Shown here: positions 6,400 through 43,373 of the stretch, in pieces
How positions within the stretch are numbered: position 1 is the first letter of the stretch
Layout: each line of letters opens with the position of its first letter
From: an uncultured Myxococcales bacterium
Lineage (GTDB): Bacteria > Myxococcota_A > UBA9042 > DTJE01
Assembly (NCBI GenBank): GCA_903847405.1
Contig: CAINDP010000091.1
Location: 789 to 64,788, forward strand
Direction: 5' to 3'
DNA: 64,000 nt
The notes under the pieces: generated by a model
Databases searched by the model: none
What the model saw: only the letters and a program-made list of their open reading frames with translations
Told to the model about the DNA's origin: nothing
Program-made: the position numbers and the translations under genes

Positions 6400-7236
6400 C
6401 TATTGGACCTTGCGCGGCATCCTGGCGTCGATCGGCTCCATGATCGGCTCGAGGTTCGCCTGGACGACCCGGGTCTTGTCGCGCTCGACAGCCACGTTGC
6501 GGATCCACGGTTCGTACCCGGCCTTCTCGAAGCGCACCGAGTGCTTGCGGGTTTCCAGATGCTGCTTGGCCACGGGCGTCTCGCCGATCAGTTGATCGTC
6601 GAGGTAGACCTTCACGCCCTCCTTCGGCTCGGTTTCGATCTGCAGGTAGCCGTAGGTCACCTTCCGCGTCAGCGAAATCTCGACCTCGGTGTCCTTGCCC
6701 TCGGTGATCACCACCTCGCGGGTCGCGTCGTCGAAGTCGGGGCATCGACAGGACACGCCCATCCGGTACGTCCCCGCCGGCACCTTCACCTGGGTCGCGG
6801 GCGTCCGGACCTGGAGGATGCCGTCCAGCGACACCTCGATCCCCTTGGGTTCGCTGCGCACCGTCAGGGTCCCGACCCCTTTCTGCGACTCGCATGCCGT
6901 CATCGCGGCCTTTGCCTGCCGATCGTCGTCCGTCCCGGGCGACAGGAACAGGAACCCCCGGAAGTACAGCAGGATCTCGCGGCATTTCTTCAGGCGCTCG
7001 GCCACGCTGCCGGCGTTGAAGTAGGCGTCGATTCCCGTGGGGTCGGCCCGCACCGCTTCGGCAAAGGCGTCCAGGGCCCGCGGCAGGTTGCGGGCCTTGG
7101 TCATCCGGGCGCCCTTGGTCAGCAGGTCGCCGTACGACGCTTCCTGGGCCACGGCCGGCGCAGCGAACCCCACGAAGACCAGGATGAGGATCGTTGCCGG
7201 AAAGGCGCGCCCCGCGGGATTTCCGATACGCCGCAT
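6400..7236 (-). CDS. exported TPR-like / PEGA domain protein
   Basis: ATG at 7236 after GGGAGGTGA. Signal ILILVFVGFAAPAVAQE. PEGA-like motifs GTLTVRSEPKGIEVSLDG and GYLQIETEPKEGVKVYLDD. The rest of the 708-aa track ORF overlaps the upstream protease gene and is discounted. Confidence 0.75.
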   Translation of the reverse strand: MRRIGNPAGRAFPATILILVFVGFAAPAVAQEASYGDLLTKGARMTKARNLPRALDAFAEAVRADPTGIDAYFNAGSVAERLKKCREILLYFRGFLFLSPGTDDDRQAKAAMTACESQKGVGTLTVRSEPKGIEVSLDGILQVRTPATQVKVPAGTYRMGVSCRCPDFDDATREVVITEGKDTEVEISLTRKVTYGYLQIETEPKEGVKVYLDDQLIGETPVAKQHLETRKHSVRFEKAGYEPWIRNVAVERDKTRVVQANLEPIMEPIDARMPRKVQ

Positions 7237-7238
7237 CG

Positions 7239-10200
7239 TCACCTCCCACCACCCCGAGCCGCAGCGGGCTGTACGGGTGTGGCCACGACGGGAGCCGCCC
7301 AGAACCGCGTGAAGCGCCGCACGGCCGTCCGGTCCTTCCCCTCGATGGCGAACACCGCAACGTCGTTCCGGCCGTCCACCAGCGGGACCGTGGTATCCAG
7401 ATCCACCGCGGCCTCGTTCGTGGGGCCCTTCCGCGTCCAGAAATAGACCTTGTCGTTGCCGCGGAAGATCAGCACCTTGCGCCGCGCCTCCCCCGCATGT
7501 CCCACGAACCGCGCGGTGCCCGTCAGGCGCAGCCGCGCCGCCTTCCCGTCCGCCGCGGGCAGTTCCTCCACGCGCAGGTCCAGGGCCGGGACCACGTTGG
7601 GGGTCAGCGGCGACAGGGGCAGCGTCGAGAAGCGGACCGCCCCTGCAACCGGCTCGGCATCGGCGGACCGGACGAAGGCGAACCGCCCGTCCTCGATTTC
7701 GACGCGCCACCAGTCCCCGACCCGGCCATCGGATCGCAGGTTGAAGCCCGCGGGCACGAAGAACAGTTCGCTGGCATCCTTCGTCGCCGCAGACCGGACC
7801 GCAACCCCGTCGCGCAGCACGCGCAGGGCTTCGGGGCGCGGCTCCAGCGCCGGCCCGGGCGTCGCCGCCACGGGAATCGCGGTGTCTTCGGACAGGAACT
7901 CGCGCAGCGACAGGTCCAGGATGCCGACTTCCAGGGTCGGCAGCGCCCCCGTCGGAGCATGCTTCAATTCGATCTTGAACCGCGCCTGGGCGGACTTGCC
8001 CGGCTGCAGCCCGTCGGCCAGGGTGAACCGGCCCTCGCGAACGAACACCCCGTCCTGACCCGACTTGTTCCGCAGCGTCACCAAAAGCTTGCGCGCGGCG
8101 CCCTCGCCGTCGTTGCGCAGATCCACCAGCAGCGTCGCCGTTTCGCCGGGATTCAGGATGCCGTCCCCGTTCCCGTTCGTGTCCAGGACCTGCACGCCCC
8201 AGGCGAACCGCGGCCGCGGGAGGGCCTTCGTCGTCACCATCACGGGCTCGGGGGCGGGACCTTCGTTCTCCCCCAGGAACAGGTGGAACGACACCCGGTC
8301 CAGACGGTCCCAGGCCTCGGTCGGGACCTTCACCACCACGTCGCGGGTCAGCGAGGCGCCGGGCTCCAGGCGGCCGAACACGAACTCGCGGCCGTCCAGG
8401 GTGCCGAAGTCCGATTCCGTGACGACCCGCGCCCGGTACTGCGTGTCGGTGCCCGGGTTCTTCACGGTCATCCGCAGGGTGACCTTGGCGCCCGGAGTCA
8501 GGGGACGGGAGCCGTCCGCCGACCACGTGACCCGCAGGGGCGTGCCCGCCTGCCGGGGGCCGTCCGTCCAGTCGATGCCCCGCACCGCCAGCCGCTCGAC
8601 GATCCGCGTGTCCTGGATCCGCGCCCAGTTGTCCAGTTCCGTGGAGACCGCCGCCAGGCCCTTCGCCCGCGTCGGCGTGCCCATCGCCTTGACCATGGCC
8701 TGGGCCAGTTCGATCGAGTCGTCCCGCTTGAACGTTTCCTCGTCCCGCAGCGGCGCGTCCTCGGGGTCGTCGTCGTTGCCCGCCGCATCGGATTCGTCGG
8801 CGGGCATGTGCCGGATACGACGGGCCGGAAGGTCGTGGGCCACCTTGCCGAAGGCTTCCAGCAGGCGCTTCAGGTCATGCTCGCGCCGGTCGTCGCCGGA
8901 TCCCAGGGCCACCGTTTCGGCCGAGGCCGTCGCCGGGATCAGTTCCACGTCCGGCACGACACCCACGCCCTGGATGGAAATGTCGCCCGGCGTCAGGTAC
9001 TGGGCCACGGTCAGCTTCAGCGCGCCGTCGCCCACCTCGTACATCACCTGGACGGTGCCCTTGCCGAACGTCGTCGTGCCGATCAGCGGCGCACGGTCGT
9101 CGTTCTTCAGGGCGCCGGCCACGATCTCGGCCGCGCTGGCGCTGCCGCCGTCCACCAGGACCACCATGGGCAGATCCGCGAAGGGCGCCCGGCCGTCGGC
9201 CTCGTACTCCTGGCGCATCCGCTTGCCCTCGCCTTCCGTGATGACGAGGGAGCCGGAGCGGATGAACAGGTTCGACACCTCGACCGACTGCTCCAGCAGG
9301 CCGCCGGGGTTCTGGCGGAGGTCCAGCACGAGCCCCTTCAGGGACCCGCGCGTCTTCAGGTCGGACAGGTGCTTCAGGACCTGCTGGGCCGTGTCTTCCT
9401 GGAAGTTCCGGATCCGCGCGTACCCGATGCCGTCGCCCAGCGACTCGCTGGTGACGCTGCGAACGTGGATTTCGGCGCGCTCCATCGTGATGGGATGGGG
9501 CTCGGTCCACTCCTTGCGCTGGACCAGGACGGTGACCTTCGTACCCGGTTCCCCGCGCAGCTTGGACACGGCGTCGGTCAAGGCCATGTTGATGGCGGAC
9601 TCGTCGCCGATCTGCAGGAACTGGTCGCCCGACTTCAGGGCCGCCTTGGACGCCGGCGTGTCGGGCATGACGGACACCAGCGTGATCAGCCCCTTCCGGG
9701 TCGAAATCACGATGCCGAGGCCGCCGAAGCGCCCCTGGGTGTCCAGTTGCATTTCCTGGAAGGCTTCGGGCGTCAGGTACACGGAGTGTTCGTCCAGCGG
9801 CGTCAGCATGCCGTTGATCGCCGCGTACTCCACGTCGTCGCTCTTGACGTCAGCGGGGAGGTGGGCGGCCACGAACTCGAACACGTCCAGCAGGCGCCAG
9901 TTCATTTCGTAGAGGTCGGACACCCCGCCCACGTCGAAGGTCCGCCGGTGATCCCCGATGCGGACCTCGACCGACTTCACCTTCGCGGCCTCGTCGCTGT
10001 CGGGCGTGACCATGAGGTCGGGAACGGCGTTTTCGGCCCCGCGAAGGGCGCCGATCAGCAACGCTGCAGGCTTCACGCGCTGGGGCACGACGTAGTTGGT
10101 ACGGATGAAGCCGACACACCGGGTCAGCAGGCGAAGACGCGACAGGTCGACGGCGCGACGTTCGCCGGCCTCGGCCGACGGGCTGCCCAGGGTTTCCAGG

Positions 10201-10334
10201 AGGGGCGAATGCGCGCCCAGGTCGGCCGTCGTGACGACCCACCCGACCAGAAGTGCGGAAGCCGCAACCACGAACAGGCGCAACGCCCGCCGCAGCCCAC
10301 CGTCCCCCCCGCCGCTATCTGCCAGACGACGCAT
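7239..10334 (-). CDS. S41-family C-terminal processing peptidase with PDZ domain and a roughly 500-aa Ig/CARDB-like C-terminal extension
   Basis: Start ATG at 10334 (MRRLADSGGG..., followed by a TM segment). PDZ segment GGLGIVIS...KSGDQFLQI. S41 core LVLDLRQNPGG, GGSASAAEIVAGALK, TFGKGTVQ. Confidence 0.85.
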   Translation of the reverse strand: MRRLADSGGGDGGLRRALRLFVVAASALLVGWVVTTADLGAHSPLLETLGSPSAEAGERRAVDLSRLRLLTRCVGFIRTNYVVPQRVKPAALLIGALRGAENAVPDLMVTPDSDEAAKVKSVEVRIGDHRRTFDVGGVSDLYEMNWRLLDVFEFVAAHLPADVKSDDVEYAAINGMLTPLDEHSVYLTPEAFQEMQLDTQGRFGGLGIVISTRKGLITLVSVMPDTPASKAALKSGDQFLQIGDESAINMALTDAVSKLRGEPGTKVTVLVQRKEWTEPHPITMERAEIHVRSVTSESLGDGIGYARIRNFQEDTAQQVLKHLSDLKTRGSLKGLVLDLRQNPGGLLEQSVEVSNLFIRSGSLVITEGEGKRMRQEYEADGRAPFADLPMVVLVDGGSASAAEIVAGALKNDDRAPLIGTTTFGKGTVQVMYEVGDGALKLTVAQYLTPGDISIQGVGVVPDVELIPATASAETVALGSGDDRREHDLKRLLEAFGKVAHDLPARRIRHMPADESDAAGNDDDPEDAPLRDEETFKRDDSIELAQAMVKAMGTPTRAKGLAAVSTELDNWARIQDTRIVERLAVRGIDWTDGPRQAGTPLRVTWSADGSRPLTPGAKVTLRMTVKNPGTDTQYRARVVTESDFGTLDGREFVFGRLEPGASLTRDVVVKVPTEAWDRLDRVSFHLFLGENEGPAPEPVMVTTKALPRPRFAWGVQVLDTNGNGDGILNPGETATLLVDLRNDGEGAARKLLVTLRNKSGQDGVFVREGRFTLADGLQPGKSAQARFKIELKHAPTGALPTLEVGILDLSLREFLSEDTAIPVAATPGPALEPRPEALRVLRDGVAVRSAATKDASELFFVPAGFNLRSDGRVGDWWRVEIEDGRFAFVRSADAEPVAGAVRFSTLPLSPLTPNVVPALDLRVEELPAADGKAARLRLTGTARFVGHAGEARRKVLIFRGNDKVYFWTRKGPTNEAAVDLDTTVPLVDGRNDVAVFAIEGKDRTAVRRFTRFWAAPVVATPVQPAAARGGGR

Positions 10335-10543
10335 CGCCACAGGGTACCTCAGAAGGTCCGTACCCGCAAGCCGCAGGCGGGGGAGCGTCCAGTTCCAACC
10401 ATCTGCGGCCGTGAAGACCGGGGGAATGTCGGGCGATGCGATCGGCAGGTCGATTCGGGGGTGTTCAAGGGCGTTGCATCGCTTCCCGGAACCGGTAAGA
10501 TAACGGCGACCTTGCTTCACCACTCCAGTTCTTGAGGTATGGA

Positions 10544-13525
10544 ATGCGTAAAACGGCGTTGTTCGCAGGGATTCTGGCAATCGTCATGGTGGCATGCGGC
10601 GGCGGCGGCACGTCCGGCAGCCCCGATGCGCTGGGGCCGGACTACGGCGACGGCGTCGGCTACAGCATCGAAACCCAGGTTTCGTCCGACGCGGTCGAAT
10701 CGGGCGCCCCGGTCACGGTCACCTGCACCGTCACCGGACCGTCCGGCACCGTCGCGGTCGGGACCCAGATCACCGTCACCCCGTCCGAAGGCGCGACCGT
10801 GGCCGACGGTACGGTGACGTTCACGAAGGCCGGCGACTACCAGGTCGCCTGCGAAGCCGCCGAAATCCCTGTCGTCGATGCCACCCCGACAACGGTCACC
10901 GTGACCGCGGGCCGGCCCTCCGCGGTCGACACGGCCGTCGCCCCGGGTTCCATCACGTCCGGCACGTCCGCGGTCGTGACCTGCACCGCCAAGGACGCCC
11001 AGGGCAACCCGGCATCCGGCACCTTCGCCGTCGTCGCCACCCCGGCCGAGGGCGTGGTCGTCACCGCCGGAACCGCCGCCGACACCTTCAACGTCGCGGG
11101 CCAGATCGTCGGCACGTACGCCCTGGCCTGCGGCCTGGCGGGCGGCGCAACGGACGAGTCCCCGGCTTCGCTGGCGGTGGTCGCCGGCGCCATGACCAAG
11201 GTCGTGACCACGATCGACGAGGAAGCGATCACGGCGGGCGACACGGCGAACGGCAAGTGCATGGCCGTGGACGCCTTCGGAAACGAGGTCTCGGGCATCG
11301 AGTTCGCGGTGCTCCCCCCGGCCGACCTGACCATCGTCAGTTCGTCCGTCGGCTTCACGGTCACCGGCACGAAGTCCGGCCTGTACACCGTCACCTGCAA
11401 GCCGGCGGACGACGCCGCAGCCACGCTGGAAGGGGACACTCTGACGATCAACGCCGGCGTGGCCGTCGGCATCGCGCTGAAGCTGATCCCCGAAAAGCCG
11501 GCGTACCAGGTGGGGAACCAGGTCAAGGTCGGCTTCGACCTCGTGGACCAGTACGGGAACGCCGTGCCCGGGGGCGCGATCACCAACCCGACCGTGGACC
11601 CGACGGTGGGCACCACCCAGATCTCCACCGACCAGTTCCAGTTCGACGCGGAAGGCCAGTTCGTCTTCCACGCGTGCGACGCCACGAACGCGGCCCTGTG
11701 CGACGACGTGACGGCGTGGTGCGACGGGACGGCCCCCCTGCTGACCATCACGTATCCCGAGCGCGGCGCCACGATCGACGGAAACCGCCTGGTCGTCGTG
11801 ACGGGCACGGTCGTCGAAAGCGTCAGCCAGATCGCATCCCTGACCATCAACGAGCAGGTCATCGAGATCGGCGCGGACGGCTCGTTCCAGTTCCCGATGG
11901 TGCCCGCCCAGGGCATGAACCTGATCGACGCCACGGCCGTCGATACCTTCGGCAACACGATCCGGACGCTGCGTTCCTACCTGTACAGCAGCCTCTGGTA
12001 CACGATGGACCTGCCGGACCCGCTGGCGTCCGCGATCCCGAACGCGCTGAAGGCGTACCTGGACGACACGCTGTTCTGGAATGCCGACACGACCGATCCG
12101 GCGACGATTTCCGCGCTGCTGGAAATGGCCCTCAAGGATCTGGACCTGACCGCGCTGATTCCGAACCCGGTCACCACCATATCGCAGAGCATTGCCCTGG
12201 ACACGTGCGGCTACCAGGTCTTCCTGGACTCGGTGACCTTCGATGCGCCGACCGTGAAGATCGTCCCGGACTTCGGCGCGCTGAAGCTGGCGATCGGCAT
12301 CCCGAACCTGAAGGCCGACGTGCGCCTGGTCAAGATCGACGGCGGCTTCCTGTGCCCCGGCAACCAGGCCGGCACGGCGACCGCCACCACGGTCACGCTG
12401 GACTCCACGGTGACCATGAGCGTGGACCCGGCGACGCACCTCATCGCCATGTCCGCCTCCGACGCCATCCTGAACATGGTCGACTTCACGCTGAAGATCG
12501 ACAACTGGTTCTACAACCTCATCGTCGGCGCCCTGCGGGGCACGATCGAGAACCTCCTGAAGGACCAGGTCAAGACGCTGCTGACGGACCAGATCAACAA
12601 GCTGCCCGAAACCCTGAACGCGGCGCTGGCCAAGCCCTTCGAGGTCGCGATCCCGGAACTGCTGCCCGGCATGAACGGGATGACCCTGCGGATTTCGATC
12701 CAGCCGCAGGCCCTGAACATGGACCCGCTGGGCGGCGCGCTGGACCTGAATGCCGCCATCACCACGGACCACACGATCGACCGCACGATCCTGGGGACCA
12801 TCGGCCGCGCGTCCTGCCTGGGCGCCCCCGACGCCTTCGGGTTCGACATGGGCAACCCCGAAAAGCTGATGCTGGGCGTGTTCGATGACGTGCTGAACGA
12901 GGCCCTGTACTCGATTTGGAACGGCCGCCTTCTGAACATGCACCTGACCGCCGAGGCCCTGAAGGACACGATGGACCTCAGCCAGTACGGCGTTGCGGAC
13001 CTGGACGCCACGACCGCGGCGCTGCTCCCGCCGGTCATCACGGCCTGCAACCCGGCCGGCACCCTCACGGTGCAGGTGGGCGACCTCTACCTCGACGCCA
13101 CGATGGTGCTGATGGGCGAACCGGTCCACCTGCGCACGTTCCTGTTCCTGGAAATCGAACTGGCGTTGAGCCTGGCGGACGACCCCGAAAAGGGCCGCGT
13201 GATCAGCATCCAGGTGGCCAGCGAGCCGAAGGTGTCCGACATGGACATCGTCTTCCTGGAGTCCAACTTCACCGAGGACGACATCAAGGGCCTGATCCTG
13301 GGCGCCCTGATCCCGGTCGTGTTCGAGCAGTTGAAGGATCCGATCACGTTCGCGATCCCGTCCTTCAACCTCAAGGGCCTGCTGGGCGCCGACTCCCCGA
13401 TCAGCCTGCCGGACAAGGACCTGGTCATCAACCCGACGGCCATGGGCCACGACAACGGCTACCTGCACATCGCGGCCGGCCTGGAACTGCGCGATCCGGT
13501 CGTCGTCCCCCCGCCCGCACCCTGA
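10544..13525 (+). CDS. large lipoprotein with N-terminal bacterial Ig-like repeats and a C-terminal domain of unknown function
   Basis: ATG at 10544 after GAGG. Lipobox IVMVAC-GGGG. Repeated roughly 90-aa T/V/A-rich beta-type segments (VTVTCTVTGP..., AVVTCTAKDAQGNP...). High GC3 along the whole frame. Confidence 0.7.
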   Translation: MRKTALFAGILAIVMVACGGGGTSGSPDALGPDYGDGVGYSIETQVSSDAVESGAPVTVTCTVTGPSGTVAVGTQITVTPSEGATVADGTVTFTKAGDYQVACEAAEIPVVDATPTTVTVTAGRPSAVDTAVAPGSITSGTSAVVTCTAKDAQGNPASGTFAVVATPAEGVVVTAGTAADTFNVAGQIVGTYALACGLAGGATDESPASLAVVAGAMTKVVTTIDEEAITAGDTANGKCMAVDAFGNEVSGIEFAVLPPADLTIVSSSVGFTVTGTKSGLYTVTCKPADDAAATLEGDTLTINAGVAVGIALKLIPEKPAYQVGNQVKVGFDLVDQYGNAVPGGAITNPTVDPTVGTTQISTDQFQFDAEGQFVFHACDATNAALCDDVTAWCDGTAPLLTITYPERGATIDGNRLVVVTGTVVESVSQIASLTINEQVIEIGADGSFQFPMVPAQGMNLIDATAVDTFGNTIRTLRSYLYSSLWYTMDLPDPLASAIPNALKAYLDDTLFWNADTTDPATISALLEMALKDLDLTALIPNPVTTISQSIALDTCGYQVFLDSVTFDAPTVKIVPDFGALKLAIGIPNLKADVRLVKIDGGFLCPGNQAGTATATTVTLDSTVTMSVDPATHLIAMSASDAILNMVDFTLKIDNWFYNLIVGALRGTIENLLKDQVKTLLTDQINKLPETLNAALAKPFEVAIPELLPGMNGMTLRISIQPQALNMDPLGGALDLNAAITTDHTIDRTILGTIGRASCLGAPDAFGFDMGNPEKLMLGVFDDVLNEALYSIWNGRLLNMHLTAEALKDTMDLSQYGVADLDATTAALLPPVITACNPAGTLTVQVGDLYLDATMVLMGEPVHLRTFLFLEIELALSLADDPEKGRVISIQVASEPKVSDMDIVFLESNFTEDDIKGLILGALIPVVFEQLKDPITFAIPSFNLKGLLGADSPISLPDKDLVINPTAMGHDNGYLHIAAGLELRDPVVVPPPAP

Positions 13526-35581: not shown

Positions 35582-35962
35582 CTACTTCACGCCCTTGGGC
35601 TGCTTCGCGCCGTACTTCGAACGGCTGCGACGACGAGCGTCCACGCCCTTGGCATCCATCGTGCCGCGGACAATGTGGTAGCGCACGCCGGGGAGATCCT
35701 TGACGCGACCTCCGCGAACCAGCACCTGCGAGTGCTCGCTGAGGTTGTGGCCTTCGCCCGGGATATAGGCGATGACCTCGAAGCCGTTCGTCAAACGGAC
35801 CTTCGCAACCTTTCGCATGGCCGAGTTCGGCTTCTTGGGCGTCGTCGTGTAAACACGAGTGCAGACGCCTCGCCGCATCGGGCACTTGGCCAGTGCGGGG
35901 GACTTGGTCTTGTACTTCGCAGGGGTGCGTCCCTTGCGAACCAGCTGATTGACCGTCGGCAT
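35582..35962 (-). CDS. rpsL: 30S ribosomal protein S12
   Basis: ATG at 35962. [12 protein letters not shown]...[12 protein letters not shown]...[14 protein letters not shown]. Confidence 0.95.
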
Positions 35963-36039
35963 CGCTGTCTCCGTACGCGCCAGAGCCGCGTGTTCTCCAC
36001 CTGCGGTCAGGCAGGGTCTGCCCAATCGCGAGGAACGGT

Positions 36040-36067
36040 ATTCTAGGCTGTTTGGGCTGGGTGTCAA
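36040..36067 (-). promoter_or_regulatory. candidate sigma70-type promoter of the str/ribosomal operon
   Basis: On the minus strand: TTGACA (36067-36062), a 16-nt spacer, then TAGAAT (36045-36040). This gives a leader of about 70 nt to the rpsL ATG. Confidence 0.45.
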
Positions 36068-36176
36068 GCCGGATTTTTCTGCAGGTGCTGGAGTTGGGGG
36101 GCGGAGGCGATTGTGCCCCGTGTTTCGATCGGGTGTCAAGAGAGTCCGGCGGGGCGAGGGAGGGCGGGAAAGTCGT

Positions 36177-36202
36177 GGGAGAATGGCACTGTCCCCGTTT
36201 CC
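36177..36202. repeat. degenerate copy of the GGGGACAGACACC hairpin repeat (inverted orientation)
   Basis: GGGAGAATGGCACTGTCCCCGTTTCC compared with the reverse complement of the 58903 copy, GGAAATGGTGTCTGTCCCCATTTTCC. The blocks AATGG, TGTCCCC and TTTCC are shared. Confidence 0.35.
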
Positions 36203-36210
36203 GGCGCTCC

Positions 36211-36239
36211 TTGACAGGCGCCGGACCGCCTCCGAGAAT
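36211..36239 (+). promoter_or_regulatory. candidate sigma70-type promoter for the endonuclease I gene
   Basis: TTGACA (36211-36216), a 17-nt spacer, then GAGAAT (36234-36239), about 50 nt upstream of the GTG at 36291. Confidence 0.45.
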
Positions 36240-36290
36240 GCTGCGGCGGCCTGCCTGCCGCGCGGGCAGCATGCTGCCGAGGAGGCCCTG

Positions 36291-37376
36291 GTGGTCCGGA
36301 CGATCCCGTCGAACCTTTCGTCGTTGATCCTCTATATGGCGATCCTGGGAGCGTCCGCCTGCGGAGGCGGTACTTCGATCCTGGCTCCCGGGCATCGAGA
36401 CCTCCTGTTCGTCGATACGCCCGACGTCGTGGACGGCCCCCGGGAACTGGACCCGGGCGGCCTGCGGCCCGACGGCGAGGCGGTGGGCGAGGACGTGGCC
36501 CCGGCGGCCGACATGGCGGCCGAGGAAGGGGACGAGGCGGACACTGCGGCCGGCGATCCCGGACCGGACGATCCGGGACCGAGCGACCCCGGGCAGCCCG
36601 ATCCGGGCCCCGGGGATCCGGGCCCGGGGGACACGGGAAGCGTCGCCCCCTACACGGGCGTCTACGCGGGCCTGGAGGACGTCACGGGCACGGAACTGGC
36701 CCGCCGCCTGTGCGCGCTGGTGACCGACGGCTACGACTCGGTGGGCTACAGCACAGCGGGGGATCTGATCCGGGACGAAGTGGACAACTTCGGCGGCCGG
36801 CTGGAGGAAATCTATTCGGGCATCTGGCAGAACCCCGGCGGGCTGAACATGGAGCACACGTGGCCCCAGAGCAAGGGCGCCGACGGGATCGCCAAGAGCG
36901 ACATGTACCACTTGTATGCGTCGAACCCCGACTACAACAGCCCGCGCGGCAACCTCCCCTACGGCGACGTGACCGTGAAGGACTGGCCCGACGCCGCCGA
37001 CGAGGTCTGCAACCACGCCTGCACGGACGCCTTCCCGGGGCGGGCGGACGTGGGCTGCTGCAGCATCCGGGGCACGGACGGCAGCGGGCAGAAGGTGTTC
37101 GAGCCGCGGGACGCCCACAAGGGCAACGTGGCCCGGGCCGTGTTCTACTTCGCGTTGCGCTACGAGGGCTGCGAGCGGCCCAGCATCTCGGCGTACGACG
37201 GCTACGGCGCCTCCCATGCGGCGATCACGGAGGCGGTGCACAAGGAGTGGAACCGCCTGGACCCCCCCGATGCCGACGAGCGGGCCCGCAACCAGCGCAT
37301 CGAGGTGTACCAAAGGGTGCGAAACCCCTTCATCGACCACCCGGAATTCGCCGATCGAATCGATTTCACGCCGTAG
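36291..37376 (+). CDS. Endonuclease I family extracellular nuclease; lipoprotein with acidic D/P-rich linker
   Basis: GTG at 36291, 5 nt after GAGGAGG. Signal [27 protein letters not shown]. Motifs [41 protein letters not shown]. Start is uncertain (alternative ATGs at 36183 and 36336). Confidence 0.8.
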
Positions 37377-37404
37377 GAAAAATGGGGGCCGCGGGAGAGG
37401 CAGG

Positions 37405-37956
37405 CTAGCCGAGAGCCCGGCCGAGGTCAGCGTGGGGGGCGGGGATGAGTTCGCTGCGCAGCAGGAGCCCGGACTCGACCGCAGCGACGCCGGCGGCCAG
37501 GGCGGCCTCGACCGAATCCTGCTGGCCGGTGAGGGTCACGTAGGCCTTCCCGCCCAGGCCCGTGCCCAGGCGAATCTCGATCAGCGTGACTTCGGCGGCC
37601 TTGCAGGCGGCATCGGCGGCCAGGACCGTGCCTACCACGCTGAAGGTTTCGATGATTCCTACCGCCATCAGGCCCGGAAGCGGCTGGACCGCGGCCATCG
37701 CAGGCAGGACCTGGGGATGGATGTTCGGGATCACCAGGCTGTCCACGAGGTACGCGCCCGCGTAGTGCACGCCCGTCGCCATGGACAGCGCGACCGACTC
37801 CTCGTCGCCCGCGATCAGCACGATGTACTTGCCCGGGCAGACCGTCTGGGAGTGGACGACCCGCACCGCGGCCCGCTTGGCCATGGCGTCGGTCGCCACG
37901 ATCCCGCGGGCGATGCTGGTCAGTTCCAGGAGGCCGATGGCGGTGATGTCGCTCAT
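37405..37956 (-). CDS. pduT: PduT-like tandem-BMC-domain (BMC-T) microcompartment shell protein
   Basis: ATG at 37956. Two BMC domains ([24 protein letters not shown] and [24 protein letters not shown]). TVCPGKY Cys at the PduT Fe-S position. [14 protein letters not shown] and [11 protein letters not shown] match my recollection of Salmonella PduT. Confidence 0.8.
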
Positions 37957-39280
37957 GGGGCCCTCTCGATGCGGATGGAACGATCGTCGACGAAGGACAC
38001 GACGCCGCCGATGGAGGCGTGGAGCCGAGCCCCCAGGGCGCCTGCGGGGATGTCGGCCACCAACTGGCCGCGCACCACGCGATCGCCCTTGCGGACGCAC
38101 GCACGGACGGCGCCCCGACGTGCTGCTTCAGCAGCAGGCGCACCTCCCACGGATCCGGCACCGGCACGATGGCGCCCTCGTGGGGGGGGACGTAGTCCGT
38201 GAGGTTCAGCCGCAGGGCCACGCGGGGCTTGGGCGCCCGGGCCCAGGCCTGGGCCTCCAGGGCCGCCTCGGGACGGTTGCGGTAGGGATTGGGCGTCCTG
38301 GCTGCCCCGACGCGCCCCCGGTACTCGCCCAGGATGTGGCGGGGCGACAGGCCCATCGTGCAGGCGTACACCTCGCACACCCCGCACTGGCTGCACAGGT
38401 AGCCCATCGCCAGGACGTCCGGCGGCACTTCCCACCCGGCCAGGGCCGCCCGCATCGCCAGGTGCGGCCGGATGCGATGGCCCAGCAGCGCCCGCGGGCA
38501 CATGTCGGTGCAGGTGCGGCACTGGCAGCAGGCCGCGGTGGCGCGACGCAGGTGGGTCGCGGTGGAGATCTTCCGGGACGTGACGACCGGGTGGTCCAGG
38601 GGCAGGACCAGGTACCCGGAGGTGGTCTTGGTGACGGGGTGGTCCAGGTCCGGCAACAGCCAGCCCATCATCGGACCGCCCTCGATCACGGCGACGTCGG
38701 CCCGCAGCGCGCCGCCGGCAGCGGCGATCACCTCGGCGGCCGACGTGCCGATGGGCGCCTCGTAGACCCCCGGACGCGCCACTTCGCCGGCGACCGTGAT
38801 GGGACGCGTGATGACCGGCCGGCCGTCCAGCGCGCGCCGGACGTTCAGCAGGGTCGCGACGTTCTGGACGACGACGCCGACTTCCAGGGGGATGCCGCCT
38901 TCGGGGACCACGCGACGCGTGACCTCGTGGACCAGGACGTGCTCGTCGCCGGCGGGGTAGAAGTCGTCCAGCAGGAACAGTTCGACCTCAGGGCCGTCCT
39001 TCAGAAGGGGAAGGACGCGCGAAATCACGGGGTGGTAGTGGCGCTTGACGGCCAGAACACGCCGGCGGGCCCCGACGGCGTCGGCCGCCAGGCGAAGGCC
39101 TTCGAGGATGGCTTCGGCGTGGGCGATCGTCACCCACTGGTCGGTGACCAGGACCGGCTCGCACTCGGCGCCGTTGGCGATGAAGGTGTCGGCACGGGCC
39201 GCCAGCTTGACGTGCGTGGGGAATCCCGCCCCGCCCGCGCCAACGACCCCCGCCTCTCGCACCCGATCTGCCAGCGTCAC
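37953..39280 (-). pseudogene. pduS: PduS-like Fe-S flavoprotein (RnfC/NuoF-like; cobalamin reductase family), reading frame broken near 38101
   Basis: GTG at 39280. Motifs GVVGAGGAGFPTHVKL, ANGAECEPVL, CCQCRTCTDMCP, CSQCGVCEVYAC. The frame runs up to LLLKQHVGAPSV. The conserved C-terminus CVRKGDRVVRGQLVADIPAGALGARLHASIGGVV then continues in another frame and ends in an ATGA overlap with pduT. Confidence 0.75.
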
Positions 39281-39373
39281 GCAACAAGCCCCGTCCGGCC
39301 CCGGGCGCGGAGTGTAGCAGAAGGGGGACGTCCCGTGGTATCGATCCGAGCGTCTGCTGCTGGATGCCCCGCC

Positions 39374-39952
39374 ATGTGGGAATGGTACCTGTCGATCGTC
39401 ACCGAACATCCCTTCGCCGCCGCGGCGGTGCAGTTCGCCCTGCTGGGAACGGTCGGGGAGTTGCTGTCCACGCGCATCCGGGACGGATCCTGGGGCGCGA
39501 TGCTGCACCCCCCCCGCATGGCCCTGAAGGCCATCGGCTGGGCGCTGCTGGGCATCTACGTCAAGGTGATGTTCCTGACCGCGTCGGCCGGCGTGAAGGC
39601 CCTGGCGGACTTCGGGGCGCTGCCCCTGGCGGCGGCGGCCCCGGACGGCACGCTGGAACTGATCCTGGCCGCGTTCGCCGCCTCCGCGCTGATGAACGTC
39701 ATGCTGGGGCCGTCGATGATGGTCCTGCACCGGGGGGCGGACAACGCCATCGACCGGGTGCTGGGCGCCGTCCCGGCGGGCTGGCGAGGCCTGGACAAGG
39801 GCATGCTGACCCTGCTGTGGCTGTGGATCCCGCTGCATACGATCACGTTCACCCAGCCCCGGGAGATCCGGATCGGGATCGCCGCCGTGCTGTCCATGGT
39901 CCTGGGCGTCGTGATGGGATGGACCAACCGGCGGGCGCCCGTCCGCGCTTGA
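39374..39952 (+). CDS. integral membrane protein of unknown function, divergent from pduS
   Basis: ATG at 39374 (MWEWYLSIVTEHPFAAAAVQFALLG...). About 5 hydrophobic segments. GC3-rich frame. 192 aa. Confidence 0.6.
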   Translation: MWEWYLSIVTEHPFAAAAVQFALLGTVGELLSTRIRDGSWGAMLHPPRMALKAIGWALLGIYVKVMFLTASAGVKALADFGALPLAAAAPDGTLELILAAFAASALMNVMLGPSMMVLHRGADNAIDRVLGAVPAGWRGLDKGMLTLLWLWIPLHTITFTQPREIRIGIAAVLSMVLGVVMGWTNRRAPVRA

Positions 39953-40014
39953 TGGCACCCCTCCCGGGATTGGCCTCCGTGCGTGCGATCCTCGGCAACC
40001 CCCGGTTTTTCCCC

Positions 40015-40041
40015 TTGCATCATGGACCGTTCTTGTAGAAT
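40015..40041 (+). promoter_or_regulatory. weak candidate promoter for the 40092 lipoprotein gene
   Basis: TTGCAT (40015-40020), a 15-nt spacer, then TAGAAT (40036-40041), within an AT-enriched patch. The spacer is shorter than optimal. Confidence 0.25.
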
Positions 40042-40091
40042 GATGCGGCCCTCGGAGTCCAGGGTACGGATCCGTCGCGGAGGTGTGTTCC

Positions 40092-43000
40092 ATGAAGATC
40101 GCTCGCTACCTGGTGTTGGGACTGATGGCGGCCATGCTGGCCGGTCCGGGGAACGTCGGCTGCTCGTGCAAGGACTCGGGGGGATCGGTCGCCGACGACC
40201 TGGATCTGACCTGGGCGCCCAGCAACCTCCCCTTCGGAACGGTGGCCCTGGGCAACACCAAGACGCTCACCGTCACGCTGAGGCACAACGGGACGTCCGG
40301 CACGATCCAGCTCAGCAACCTCTTCCTCGAGGACCTCAGCGAGGAATTCACCTTCGAACCCCCGTCCAAGCTGTCGCTGGCGGTGGGCGAGGAGGTCGTC
40401 GTCAAGGTGACCTACACCCCGCTCAGCGCGACCTCCAGCTACGGCTTCCTGGTCATCGAGAACAACGTCGCCTCCCTGGGCGGCGTGGCCCGCATTCCCG
40501 TGACCGCCAACGGCCAGGTCGGCGAAATCCTGGTCAACCCGAACCCGATCGACTTCGGGCAGGTGGACACGGGCGACAGCCTGATGCTGGACGTGATCGT
40601 GACGAACACCGGGTCCGACTCGGTCGTGCTGAACGCGATGTCCCTGCGCCTGGACGGCAGCGCCGACTTCACCATCGAGGCCGTCAACCTGCCCGACAGC
40701 AAGGTGATGCCCTACACGCTGGCCCCGACCGAGTCCATCGGCCTGGTCATCAAGTACGCGCCGACCGGCGGCGGCAACGACACCTCCACGCTGGTCATCG
40801 AGGGCGACACCCAGGGCACCTACGCCGTGTGGTCCTTCGACGTCCTGGGCGAGGAGATGGGCCCCCTGCTGGTGGCCAGCCCCGGCCAACTGGACTTCCA
40901 GTACGTGCCGCTGAACAGCGAAAAGACCCTGCTGCTGAACGTCGCGAACACCGGGAACGCCGAACTGGTGATCCCGAAGGACGGCCTGTCCCTGTGGATG
41001 AACTCGGACCCGAACATCGTCATCAAGAACCCGCCGACGGCCGACGTCAAGATCGCCCCCGGCGCCTCGTACGACTACACGATCGGCTGGACCTCCGTCG
41101 CGGTCACCGTGGATGACGGCAAGCCGATCGGCCAGTTGATGATCGCCAGCAACGACGTGTCCCACAGCCCGATGCCCATCCCCGTCTACGGCCGGCCCGA
41201 CGCGCCCATCCTGGTCGTCATCCCCGACGCGGTCGACATGAGCTTCGGCGCCATGATGACGCCGGTCTACCGCACGGTCACGATGCGCAACGACGGCAGC
41301 GCCATGTTGAACGTGGTCAGCCTGGCCATCGTTGACGCGTCGGACACGACCTACGGCGACGAGTTCGCGATCGTCCACGGCAACACCACCGCCGCGACCA
41401 TCGGCGCCTTCGGGATCCCCGGAGCCGGTGCGCCCGGGGCGGCGAACTCGGATTCCGTCCAGATCAAGTTCACGAACAAGGCCCCCAAGGAAAAGAAGGG
41501 CCAGTGCCTGACGGCCAAGATGCGGATCGTGTCCAACTACGCGGGCCACGAAACGGTGGACGTCCCGATTTCCGTCTGCCGCTCGGACGCCCCGGTGTGC
41601 AACATCGCGATGGTCCCGGCCGGCATCAATTTCGGGACCGTGCCGATCGGCTTCCCGAAGGAACTGCCCGTCAACATCGTGAACATCGGAACCGGCAACT
41701 GCACGTTCCAGAACGCCAAGATCCAGGACTGCACCAGCGGGTTCCTGGGCGGCGCAACCTGTACCGCACCGAACTTCTCGGGCGGCTCCTCGGCGATCTT
41801 CAAGTTGTCGAACCTGCCCCCGGTCACCGCGGGCGGGATCACTCCCGGCATGACGCACACGATGACCGTGCGGTTCAACCCGCCCAGCGCCACTCCCCTG
41901 TTCGGCCTGCTGAACCAGTACTCCGCGGTGCTGGGGATCCAGGTCAAGGACGTCGTCCTGGGAACCACCATCGTGCTGCCCAAGGCCCCCACGTCGGGCG
42001 CCTACCTGGCCAACGTCATGGGCTCCTCGGGCATCGCCAAGATCAGCGTGCTCCCCGGCGAACTGAAGTTCGGCGTCACGACGATCGGCTGCTTCAGCAA
42101 GACCTACAAGGTCTGCGTGTACAACTCGGGCAACGCCCCACTGATGGTCACCGACATCCGCCTGGTCGGCTGCTCGCCCGAGTTCAAGGTCAAGAACATC
42201 CCGGCCCTGCCGATGGCCGTGCCGAACGGCGCGCCGAAGTGCATCGAGGCGGTGTACGCGCCGCAGGACGAGGGCCCGGACACCTGCTCCATGCAGATCG
42301 ACGCCACGGACACGTCGTCGCCGACCGTCGCCGTGAAACTGTCGGGCGCAGGGACCTATGACACCCACCAGACGGACGAATTCACGCAGGTCACGGGCCA
42401 GGAAGTCGACATCCTCTGGATCATCGACGACTCGGGCTCCATGTGCGAGGAACAGACCCGCCTGAACTCGTCGTTCAGCGACTTCATCGCCCAGGCGAAC
42501 GTCTGGAAGAACGACTTCCACCTGGGCGGCATCAGCGTCAACGTCACGGACGAGGCGGTCATCGGTCGCCTGAACCGGGGCGACAAGTCGATCACTCCGC
42601 GGTACATGACCAAGACCAACGGCGGATCCTTCGCCAAGTTGACCATGTACGGGTGCGACGGCGGCTCGGACTCGCAGGAAGCCGGCATGCAGGCGGCCCA
42701 GACCGCCCTGTCGGCCCCGCTGGCCACCGATACGGGCGTCGTCTGCGGCAGCGACACCGACTGCGCAAACGACGCGAACATCTGCCCGGATCCGGCGACA
42801 TGCTCCTACAAGTGCGTCGACGGGAAGTGCGGCGGCTTCAACGCCGGCTTCCTGCGCGACGGGGCGCAGTTGGAGATGGTCGTCCTGTCCGACGAGGAGG
42901 ACCAGTCGTCCGGCGGGCTGCCCTTCTACGTCGATTTCTTCAAGAACATCAAGGGCTGGTACAACGTCGACATGATGCACTTCAACGCCATCGTCGGCAT

Positions 43001-43373
43001 CGACGGCGTGCCGAACTCCGGCAGCGAAAGCGCCTGCGTGTCGTCGGACGGCGGCACGGCGGATTCGGGCGATCGGTACCTCCAGGTGGCCACGGAAACG
43101 AAGGGCCTGTCGGGCTCGATCTGCGAGTCGTCCTACTCGAAGATCATGAACGAGATCGGAAACCTCACGTTCCATCCGAAACTTCAGTTCTTCCTGTCGC
43201 GCCTGGCGGACCCGGCGACCGTGACGGTCAAGGTGAACGGGACTGCGTGCACCTCGGGCTGGCGCTACGACGCGCCGTCCAACTCGATCATCTTCGACCC
43301 GGCGGCCGCGTGCATGCCCGGCCCGGGTGACAAGGTCGTGATCGACTACGAAACGCTCTGCCTGACGTCGTAG
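40092..43373 (+). CDS. giant lipoprotein with tandem HYDIN/choice-of-anchor-D-like Ig repeats and a C-terminal vWA-like domain
   Basis: ATG at 40092 after GGAGG. Signal MKIARYLVLGLMAAMLAGPGNVGC. At least 6 repeats of the type L.F..V..G....L.V.V.N.G...L. A MIDAS-like motif DILWIIDDSGSM. Confidence 0.8.
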   Translation: MKIARYLVLGLMAAMLAGPGNVGCSCKDSGGSVADDLDLTWAPSNLPFGTVALGNTKTLTVTLRHNGTSGTIQLSNLFLEDLSEEFTFEPPSKLSLAVGEEVVVKVTYTPLSATSSYGFLVIENNVASLGGVARIPVTANGQVGEILVNPNPIDFGQVDTGDSLMLDVIVTNTGSDSVVLNAMSLRLDGSADFTIEAVNLPDSKVMPYTLAPTESIGLVIKYAPTGGGNDTSTLVIEGDTQGTYAVWSFDVLGEEMGPLLVASPGQLDFQYVPLNSEKTLLLNVANTGNAELVIPKDGLSLWMNSDPNIVIKNPPTADVKIAPGASYDYTIGWTSVAVTVDDGKPIGQLMIASNDVSHSPMPIPVYGRPDAPILVVIPDAVDMSFGAMMTPVYRTVTMRNDGSAMLNVVSLAIVDASDTTYGDEFAIVHGNTTAATIGAFGIPGAGAPGAANSDSVQIKFTNKAPKEKKGQCLTAKMRIVSNYAGHETVDVPISVCRSDAPVCNIAMVPAGINFGTVPIGFPKELPVNIVNIGTGNCTFQNAKIQDCTSGFLGGATCTAPNFSGGSSAIFKLSNLPPVTAGGITPGMTHTMTVRFNPPSATPLFGLLNQYSAVLGIQVKDVVLGTTIVLPKAPTSGAYLANVMGSSGIAKISVLPGELKFGVTTIGCFSKTYKVCVYNSGNAPLMVTDIRLVGCSPEFKVKNIPALPMAVPNGAPKCIEAVYAPQDEGPDTCSMQIDATDTSSPTVAVKLSGAGTYDTHQTDEFTQVTGQEVDILWIIDDSGSMCEEQTRLNSSFSDFIAQANVWKNDFHLGGISVNVTDEAVIGRLNRGDKSITPRYMTKTNGGSFAKLTMYGCDGGSDSQEAGMQAAQTALSAPLATDTGVVCGSDTDCANDANICPDPATCSYKCVDGKCGGFNAGFLRDGAQLEMVVLSDEEDQSSGGLPFYVDFFKNIKGWYNVDMMHFNAIVGIDGVPNSGSESACVSSDGGTADSGDRYLQVATETKGLSGSICESSYSKIMNEIGNLTFHPKLQFFLSRLADPATVTVKVNGTACTSGWRYDAPSNSIIFDPAAACMPGPGDKVVIDYETLCLTS

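Follow-up and report, generated by a model that had tools for sequence, protein, structure and literature searches.

An MNdh/BMC-T^SE gene pair in an uncultured Myxococcota genome as a probable satellite of its HO-type microcompartment, with a one-base frame break in MNdh

The window analyzed here, a 64,000-nucleotide stretch of one contig (C91) of a Myxococcota MAG (5.65 Mb, 273 contigs), carries a pair of minus-strand genes at positions 37405–39280 that most probably constitutes a two-gene MNdh/BMC-T^SE operon and a satellite of the host's HO-type microcompartment (rough probability 0.8). This assignment draws on gene identity, domain order, motifs, adjacency, conservation, a genomic link to aldehyde dehydrogenase (AldDH), and clade membership, all of which were observed directly. 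The kind of module itself was already described in 2024; what is new here is the loss of a single G in the MNdh gene of the window.

The upstream gene of the pair encodes MNdh (PduS-like; 37953..39280, minus strand; 442 aa in the intact allele) and starts with a GTG codon at 39280. The downstream gene (37405..37956, minus strand) encodes BMC-T^SE (PduT-like), a 183-aa protein with tandem BMC domains and a pore cysteine, Cys40, in a CPGK motif. As the preliminary description of this DNA had stated, the two genes overlap in an ATGA, read in the sequence at 37953..37956 (minus strand), that joins the TGA stop of MNdh to the ATG start of BMC-T^SE. The 4-nt overlap is called likewise in three other assemblies (L034–L036), and a Shine-Dalgarno-like GAGAGGG lies 5 nt upstream of the BMC-T^SE start. 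The divergent intergenic region of 93 bp (39281..39373) between MNdh and the gene for a 192-aa membrane protein presumably holds the promoter of the two-gene operon; a scan of 35900–40300 found neither a sigma-70-like site nor a terminator. At 37377–37382, between the stop codons of BMC-T^SE and the neighboring endonuclease gene, about 38 additional bases are present in L034 and L037 and missing from the window, L035, and L036, which indicates an intergenic length polymorphism within the population.

A Pfam profile search finds two PF00936 stretches in BMC-T^SE (E = 7.8e-39) and bears out the earlier reading of the 183-aa product as a BMC-domain protein, of the PduT type and with its pore cysteine retained (QTVC40PGKY). 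The nearest solved structures are those of the PduT-type proteins 3NWG, 3PAC, and 3N79, and the CPGK of BMC-T^SE aligns with the CPGK of 3NWG and 3PAC. This motif is kept in 19/19 MNdh-adjacent orthologues; the AldDH-adjacent T1 paralogs have S, T, A, D, or Q in place of the pore Cys. A maximum-likelihood tree places the Cys-pore BMC-Ts in one clade (support 100/98), comprising the window BMC-T^SE, its orthologues, PduT, and proteins from other phyla, that is separate from the AldDH-adjacent T1 paralogs. The pair is homologous to PduS/PduT of Salmonella and Citrobacter (3N79, E = 4.6e-41; 3PAC, E = 3.8e-45; pore Cys aligned), with an identity between BMC-T^SE and PduT that we estimate as moderate; however, it lies outside any pdu operon, with no pdu genes beyond the pair itself within the window, and BMC-T^SE branches apart from 3PAC in the tree. 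A Cys-pore BMC-T with 52% identity to the window BMC-T^SE is also found on CAZFHY010000011.1 (L060), which is labelled 'Candidatus Undinarchaeota archaeon'; mis-binning is more likely to account for the BMC genes of this archaeal MAG than a true archaeal microcompartment.

MNdh is built from a NuoF-like FMN/NADH domain, followed by an SLBB domain, two [4Fe-4S] motifs, and a C-terminal RnfC_N barrel. In the window these parts are distributed over two reading frames, with profile matches to PF01512 (Complex1_51K), PF10531 (SLBB), and PF13534 (Fer4_17) in frame A and to PF13375 (RnfC_N) in frame B. The GAGGAGFP motif and eight cysteines of MNdh are conserved across 20 relatives. Both Fe-S motifs had been given as CxxCxxCxxxCP in the preliminary description; the first stands, but the second reads CxxCxxCxxxxC and is followed by T in the window and by P in most relatives. 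In an alignment with RnfC (7ZC6, E = 3.4e-52), the NADH/FMN, SLBB, and dicluster ferredoxin domains are matched, with MNdh residues 6–321 aligning to RnfC residues 126–425 and MNdh residues 379–431 to RnfC residues 32–83. From this order of the aligned segments, MNdh is circularly permuted relative to RnfC: the barrel is N-terminal in RnfC and C-terminal in MNdh. MNdh further differs from RnfC in that rnf partner genes are absent nearby and its partner is a shell protein.

The module described in 2024 consists of a PduS-like MNdh, with PF01512, PF10531, a dicluster, and a C-terminal PF13375 in an order permuted relative to RnfC, and a PduT-like BMC-T^SE that has a universal CP(G/S)K and stands beside MNdh in 97% of 2,172 loci (PMC11626177). 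It is restricted to AldDh-type microcompartments and frequently occupies satellite loci (18/20 PVM and 5/7 ACI cases), and its proposed function is lumenal NAD+ regeneration, with electrons relayed from NADH by FMN and three [4Fe-4S] clusters to the shell exterior (PMC11626177). The window pair shares with it the tandem PF00936 chain, the CPGK pore motif, immediate adjacency, a satellite locus, and an AldDh metabolosome genome; the four MNdh domains are all present in the intact population allele, with the PF13375 part out of frame in the window. Unlike the published module, it belongs to an uncultured Myxococcota whose microcompartment is HO-type, a type absent from those named in the main text of the 2024 paper (PMC11626177, PNAS 2024); its satellite lies beside the rpsL-rpsG-fusA operon in several genera of one family (f1); and its MNdh is frameshifted here.

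The pair had been described as an orphan with no other microcompartment genes around it. The second half of that statement holds for the window and for the whole 65-kb contig, on which the profile search found no PF00936 or PF03319 match besides BMC-T^SE; it fails for the genome, and with it the label of orphan. On contig C179, a BMC-T, an AldDH (PF00171), a BMC-P, a BMC-H, and a BMC-T^dp form one run, a complete main locus that has no PduS-like gene of its own and whose BMC-T carries a pore Ser. The BMC-T^dp matches the solved HO-5816 (E = 1.9e-94), and the gene order is the same as in the HO-type locus of Haliangium ochraceum, which we take to be that of Hoch_5812-5816. Elsewhere in the genome, C10 carries two BMC-P genes adjoining a class II aldolase (PF00596); C135 a BMC-P triplet, included in the genome's total of seven PF03319 matches; C258 one more BMC-P, a lone one (PF03319 match at 9264–9578); and C213 an EUT module composed of eutC (6940–7848), eutB (7848–9299), and an EutL fusion. 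With the BMC-T^dp, the AldDH, the BMC-P triplet, the satellite of two BMC-P genes plus aldolase, and the EUT module all present, the C179 main locus and its satellites are, as judged from sequence, an HO-type microcompartment; the HO type and satellites with these hallmarks are catalogued in Sutter 2021 (PMC8217296). A satellite locus is one that is distal to a main locus with BMC-H and BMC-P and itself lacks that combination (Axen 2014, Sutter 2021), and C91 has BMC-T^SE as its only shell gene, with the main locus on C179. The genome-wide search, which found both BMC-H and BMC-P in the main locus and further BMC-P genes on C10, C135, and C258, supports one of the two possibilities raised in the preliminary description, that of a satellite serving a distant microcompartment. 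That description had also named the finding that would turn the pair into an ordinary satellite, a full microcompartment locus at another site without its own S/T pair, and the C179 main locus, with its Ser-pore BMC-T and no PduS-like gene, matches it. The host genome also shares the aldolase, BMC-P triplet, and EUT satellites with H. ochraceum, to which it adds a second, Cys-bearing BMC-T with MNdh as an extra satellite; in the literature, the BMC-T^S of the H. ochraceum type strain is without the pore Cys, and an MNdh partner for that strain is undescribed.

The EutL fusion on C213 (5613–6953, minus strand, 446 aa) joins a full EutL-type shell protein (residues 13–222, E = 1.9e-68 to 4EDI) to a C-terminal cobalamin adenosyltransferase domain of the PduO type (PF01923, residues 267–427); a shell protein carrying a B12-adenosylating enzyme is an uncommon type of fusion. 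On C258, the BMC-P gene is followed by a gene for an ACT-domain protein (9614–10261) with an N-terminal extension of ~120 aa, which might be a candidate encapsulation signal, and then by a gene for a 457-aa protein (10324–11697). The sole DeoC homologue of the genome (C48, 237-aa open frame) has no obvious long extension. An iron-type alcohol dehydrogenase (Fe-ADH) gene was found on none of the BMC-bearing contigs and PduL nowhere in the genome, which fits a need for another NAD+ recycler. The diol dehydratase profile PF02286 gave zero matches in the host genome and likewise in control genomes, so this result is uninformative.

The lumenal location, electron flow, and acceptor suggested for the pair are carried over from the published module, and a role in electron export would follow by analogy with work on a Clostridium homologue. 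In such a scheme, the AldDH of the C179 main locus would produce NADH in the lumen, and MNdh, seated against the BMC-T^SE trimer on its lumenal side, would oxidize this NADH at FMN. Electrons would pass through the two [4Fe-4S] clusters of MNdh to a [4Fe-4S] cluster that is held in the pore by three Cys40 residues, and this pore cluster would hand them to an acceptor beyond the shell, so that NAD+ would be regenerated without an alcohol dehydrogenase. The cofactor-binding motifs for this putative relay, namely GAGGAGFP, the eight cysteines, and the pore Cys, are visible at the level of sequence.

Conservation among relatives agrees with the assignment as an MNdh/BMC-T^SE satellite. In loci fetched with wide flanks from relatives that span four or more families of the class, MNdh and BMC-T^SE were adjacent in 20/20 cases, and MNdh was intact in each of them. 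Within family f1 the pair always keeps a distance of at least ~8 kb from other shell genes and, in several genera, stands next to rpsL-rpsG-fusA; in G051, a class-level relative from a different family, it is part of the HO-like main locus, flanked by BMC-H and BMC-T^dp. The module is present in 30/61 genomes, 29 of which also encode the HO-type AldDH, and the lone exception is an 86%-complete MAG. A further 20 relatives lack the module but have the AldDH microcompartment. The congener G002 (C35, L160) lacks the whole four-gene block of endonuclease, BMC-T^SE, MNdh, and membrane protein, its fusA-rpsG-rpsL being followed directly by the gene for a 1093-aa protein at a syntenic rpsL/1093-aa-protein junction. 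G015 has neither MNdh nor a Cys-type BMC-T, and G012 (C3, L161) keeps MNdh with a BMC-T reduced to its first BMC domain. The AldDH organelles without the module, together with the clean loss in G002, indicate that the module is dispensable, and NAD+ recycling must then have another route in those genomes.

In the window, the 1328-nt MNdh span (39280..37953) does not form one open frame, a break that the preliminary description, right about the PduS type and the GAGGAGFP motif, had missed. It is split into frame A (38103–39280, minus strand), which covers the N-terminal ~391 codons, and frame B (37953–38102, minus strand), which covers the final ~50 codons with the RnfC_N barrel and ends in the ATGA overlap. 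The identical BMC-T^SE protein is present on six other metagenome contigs, and the DNA of four of these (L034–L037, 99.7–99.9% identical to the window) was read. Base-by-base alignment with these four assemblies locates the break in a lost G at 38101..38102 (minus strand), where the window reads CCGTCCGTG-CGTGCG and L034–L037 all read CCGTCCGTGGCGTGCG. An intact 442-aa MNdh is called on 5/6 contigs, the L037 copy being cut by the contig end, and the parts of MNdh are in one frame in 19/19 relatives taken from whole genomes. The aberrant 617-aa product of the frameshift has zero matches in public assemblies. The lost G may reflect either an error of the assembly or real variation between strains; the population allele of MNdh is intact. 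With the window MNdh frameshifted, the module is possibly inactive in this strain.

An alternative reading would make MNdh a true, recent pseudogene in this strain, in a decaying module of which the shell protein alone is functional; it bears on the state of the MNdh gene and not on its identity. The G loss is unique among the five near-identical assemblies and is the sole uncompensated indel in the ~8 kb common to the window and L034–L037, and the losses in G002 (whole block), G015, and G012 (half of the BMC-T) lend some weight to real decay in the window, although they are not decisive. Against this, there are no further disabling changes, the frame B codons downstream of the lost G are still open and conserved, and a single mistake in the consensus or polishing of a MAG with 273 contigs would explain the lost G just as simply. 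We regard a pseudogene as possible but improbable, at somewhat less than one chance in three. Slightly more doubtful is the wider proposition that the G loss is real and that, taken with G002, G015, and G012, it marks a family that repeatedly sheds the module and keeps the HO-type organelle.

The classical role of PduS, with the flavoprotein as a reductase that yields cob(I)alamin from cob(III)/cob(II)alamin (literature summarized in PMC4207490 and PMC11626177), was weighed as an alternative function. Here the cob(I)alamin would go to the adenosyltransferase that keeps the B12-dependent EutBC of the EUT satellite active, and the Fe-S BMC-T would supply or remove electrons, an arrangement that is compatible with NAD+ recycling. 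The host does encode, on C213, EutB, EutC, and an EutL with a fused Cob_adeno_trans domain of the PduO type, and EutB occurs in 26 of the 30 module genomes. However, the module occurs without EutB in G038 and in two 96%-complete genomes, G006 and G020, 16 genomes have EutB without the module (three of them also without a BMC AldDH), and an Rfam scan of 35900–40300 gave zero matches, cobalamin riboswitch included. In the 2024 analysis, the module is moreover argued to be a general feature of AldDh BMCs, the majority of which do not use B12 (PMC11626177). A cobalamin-reducing function of this kind is unlikely for the window pair, at about one chance in five.

The other possibility raised in the preliminary description was a use independent of any shell, in which the BMC-T trimer and the flavoprotein would act together as a redox pair, in solution or at a membrane, with the membrane protein as a possible partner. 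The gap of at least ~8 kb that separates the pair from further shell genes in family f1 and the divergent transcription of the membrane protein gene from the pair in this genus would suit such a use. It is nevertheless very improbable, given the BMC AldDH in all module genomes except one incomplete MAG and the position of the pair inside the main locus of G051; among the 61 genomes, no complete genome has the pair without BMC-H, BMC-P, and AldDH. The 192-aa multi-pass membrane protein (39374..39952, plus strand) lies outside the module, has zero Pfam or NCBIfam matches, and contains no Cys. The link to the pair that had been suggested for it does not hold up, as it adjoins the pair in 3/20 relatives (G001, G003, and G016), and on these grounds it was rejected as a functional partner or electron acceptor.

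On the other side, also outside the module, an Endonuclease I family lipoprotein-like protein of 361 aa (36291..37376, plus strand; PF04231, E = 2e-28) is encoded convergently with BMC-T^SE; profile searches agree with the earlier account of both neighbors. A partnership with Endonuclease I is tempting given the nucleic-acid catabolism role proposed for HO/SPU organelles. This candidate was rejected as well, the gene being adjacent in this species and in 2/20 relatives (G006 and G012) and not in the congener G001. The neighbor most consistently conserved beside the pair in family f1 is the gene for the 1093-aa protein (40092–43373, plus strand), a secreted protein with ASH/HYDIN-like Ig domains whose paralogs form a multi-copy family; in the congener G002, full-length copies number at least four. 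Programmed −1 ribosomal frameshifting in MNdh was rejected: a −1 shift would indeed lead from frame A into frame B, and both are open at the junction, but a slippery heptamer is absent at CCGTCCGTGCGTGCG and the 19 relatives and four near-identical assemblies all encode MNdh in a single frame.

The assignment of the pair to the MNdh/BMC-T^SE module mainly clears a false lead, in that it is probably an ordinary satellite of a dispersed microcompartment, and the frame break in MNdh calls for caution when annotating or cloning from this MAG. It also adds a data point, the 2024 module attached to HO-type organelles across an uncultured Myxococcota family in which its two genes are gained or lost together. 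If the module is indeed shed repeatedly in this family, the enigmatic HO microcompartment would have a second way of recycling NAD+, and natural MNdh/BMC-T^SE knock-outs would exist for comparative study. Structural work on BMC shells has the HO organelle as its main model. In many relatives this organelle is coupled to an NADH-oxidizing Fe-S relay, as the pair would provide, to an EUT module, and to an aldolase, which helps to frame the question of which substrate the organelle may oxidize.
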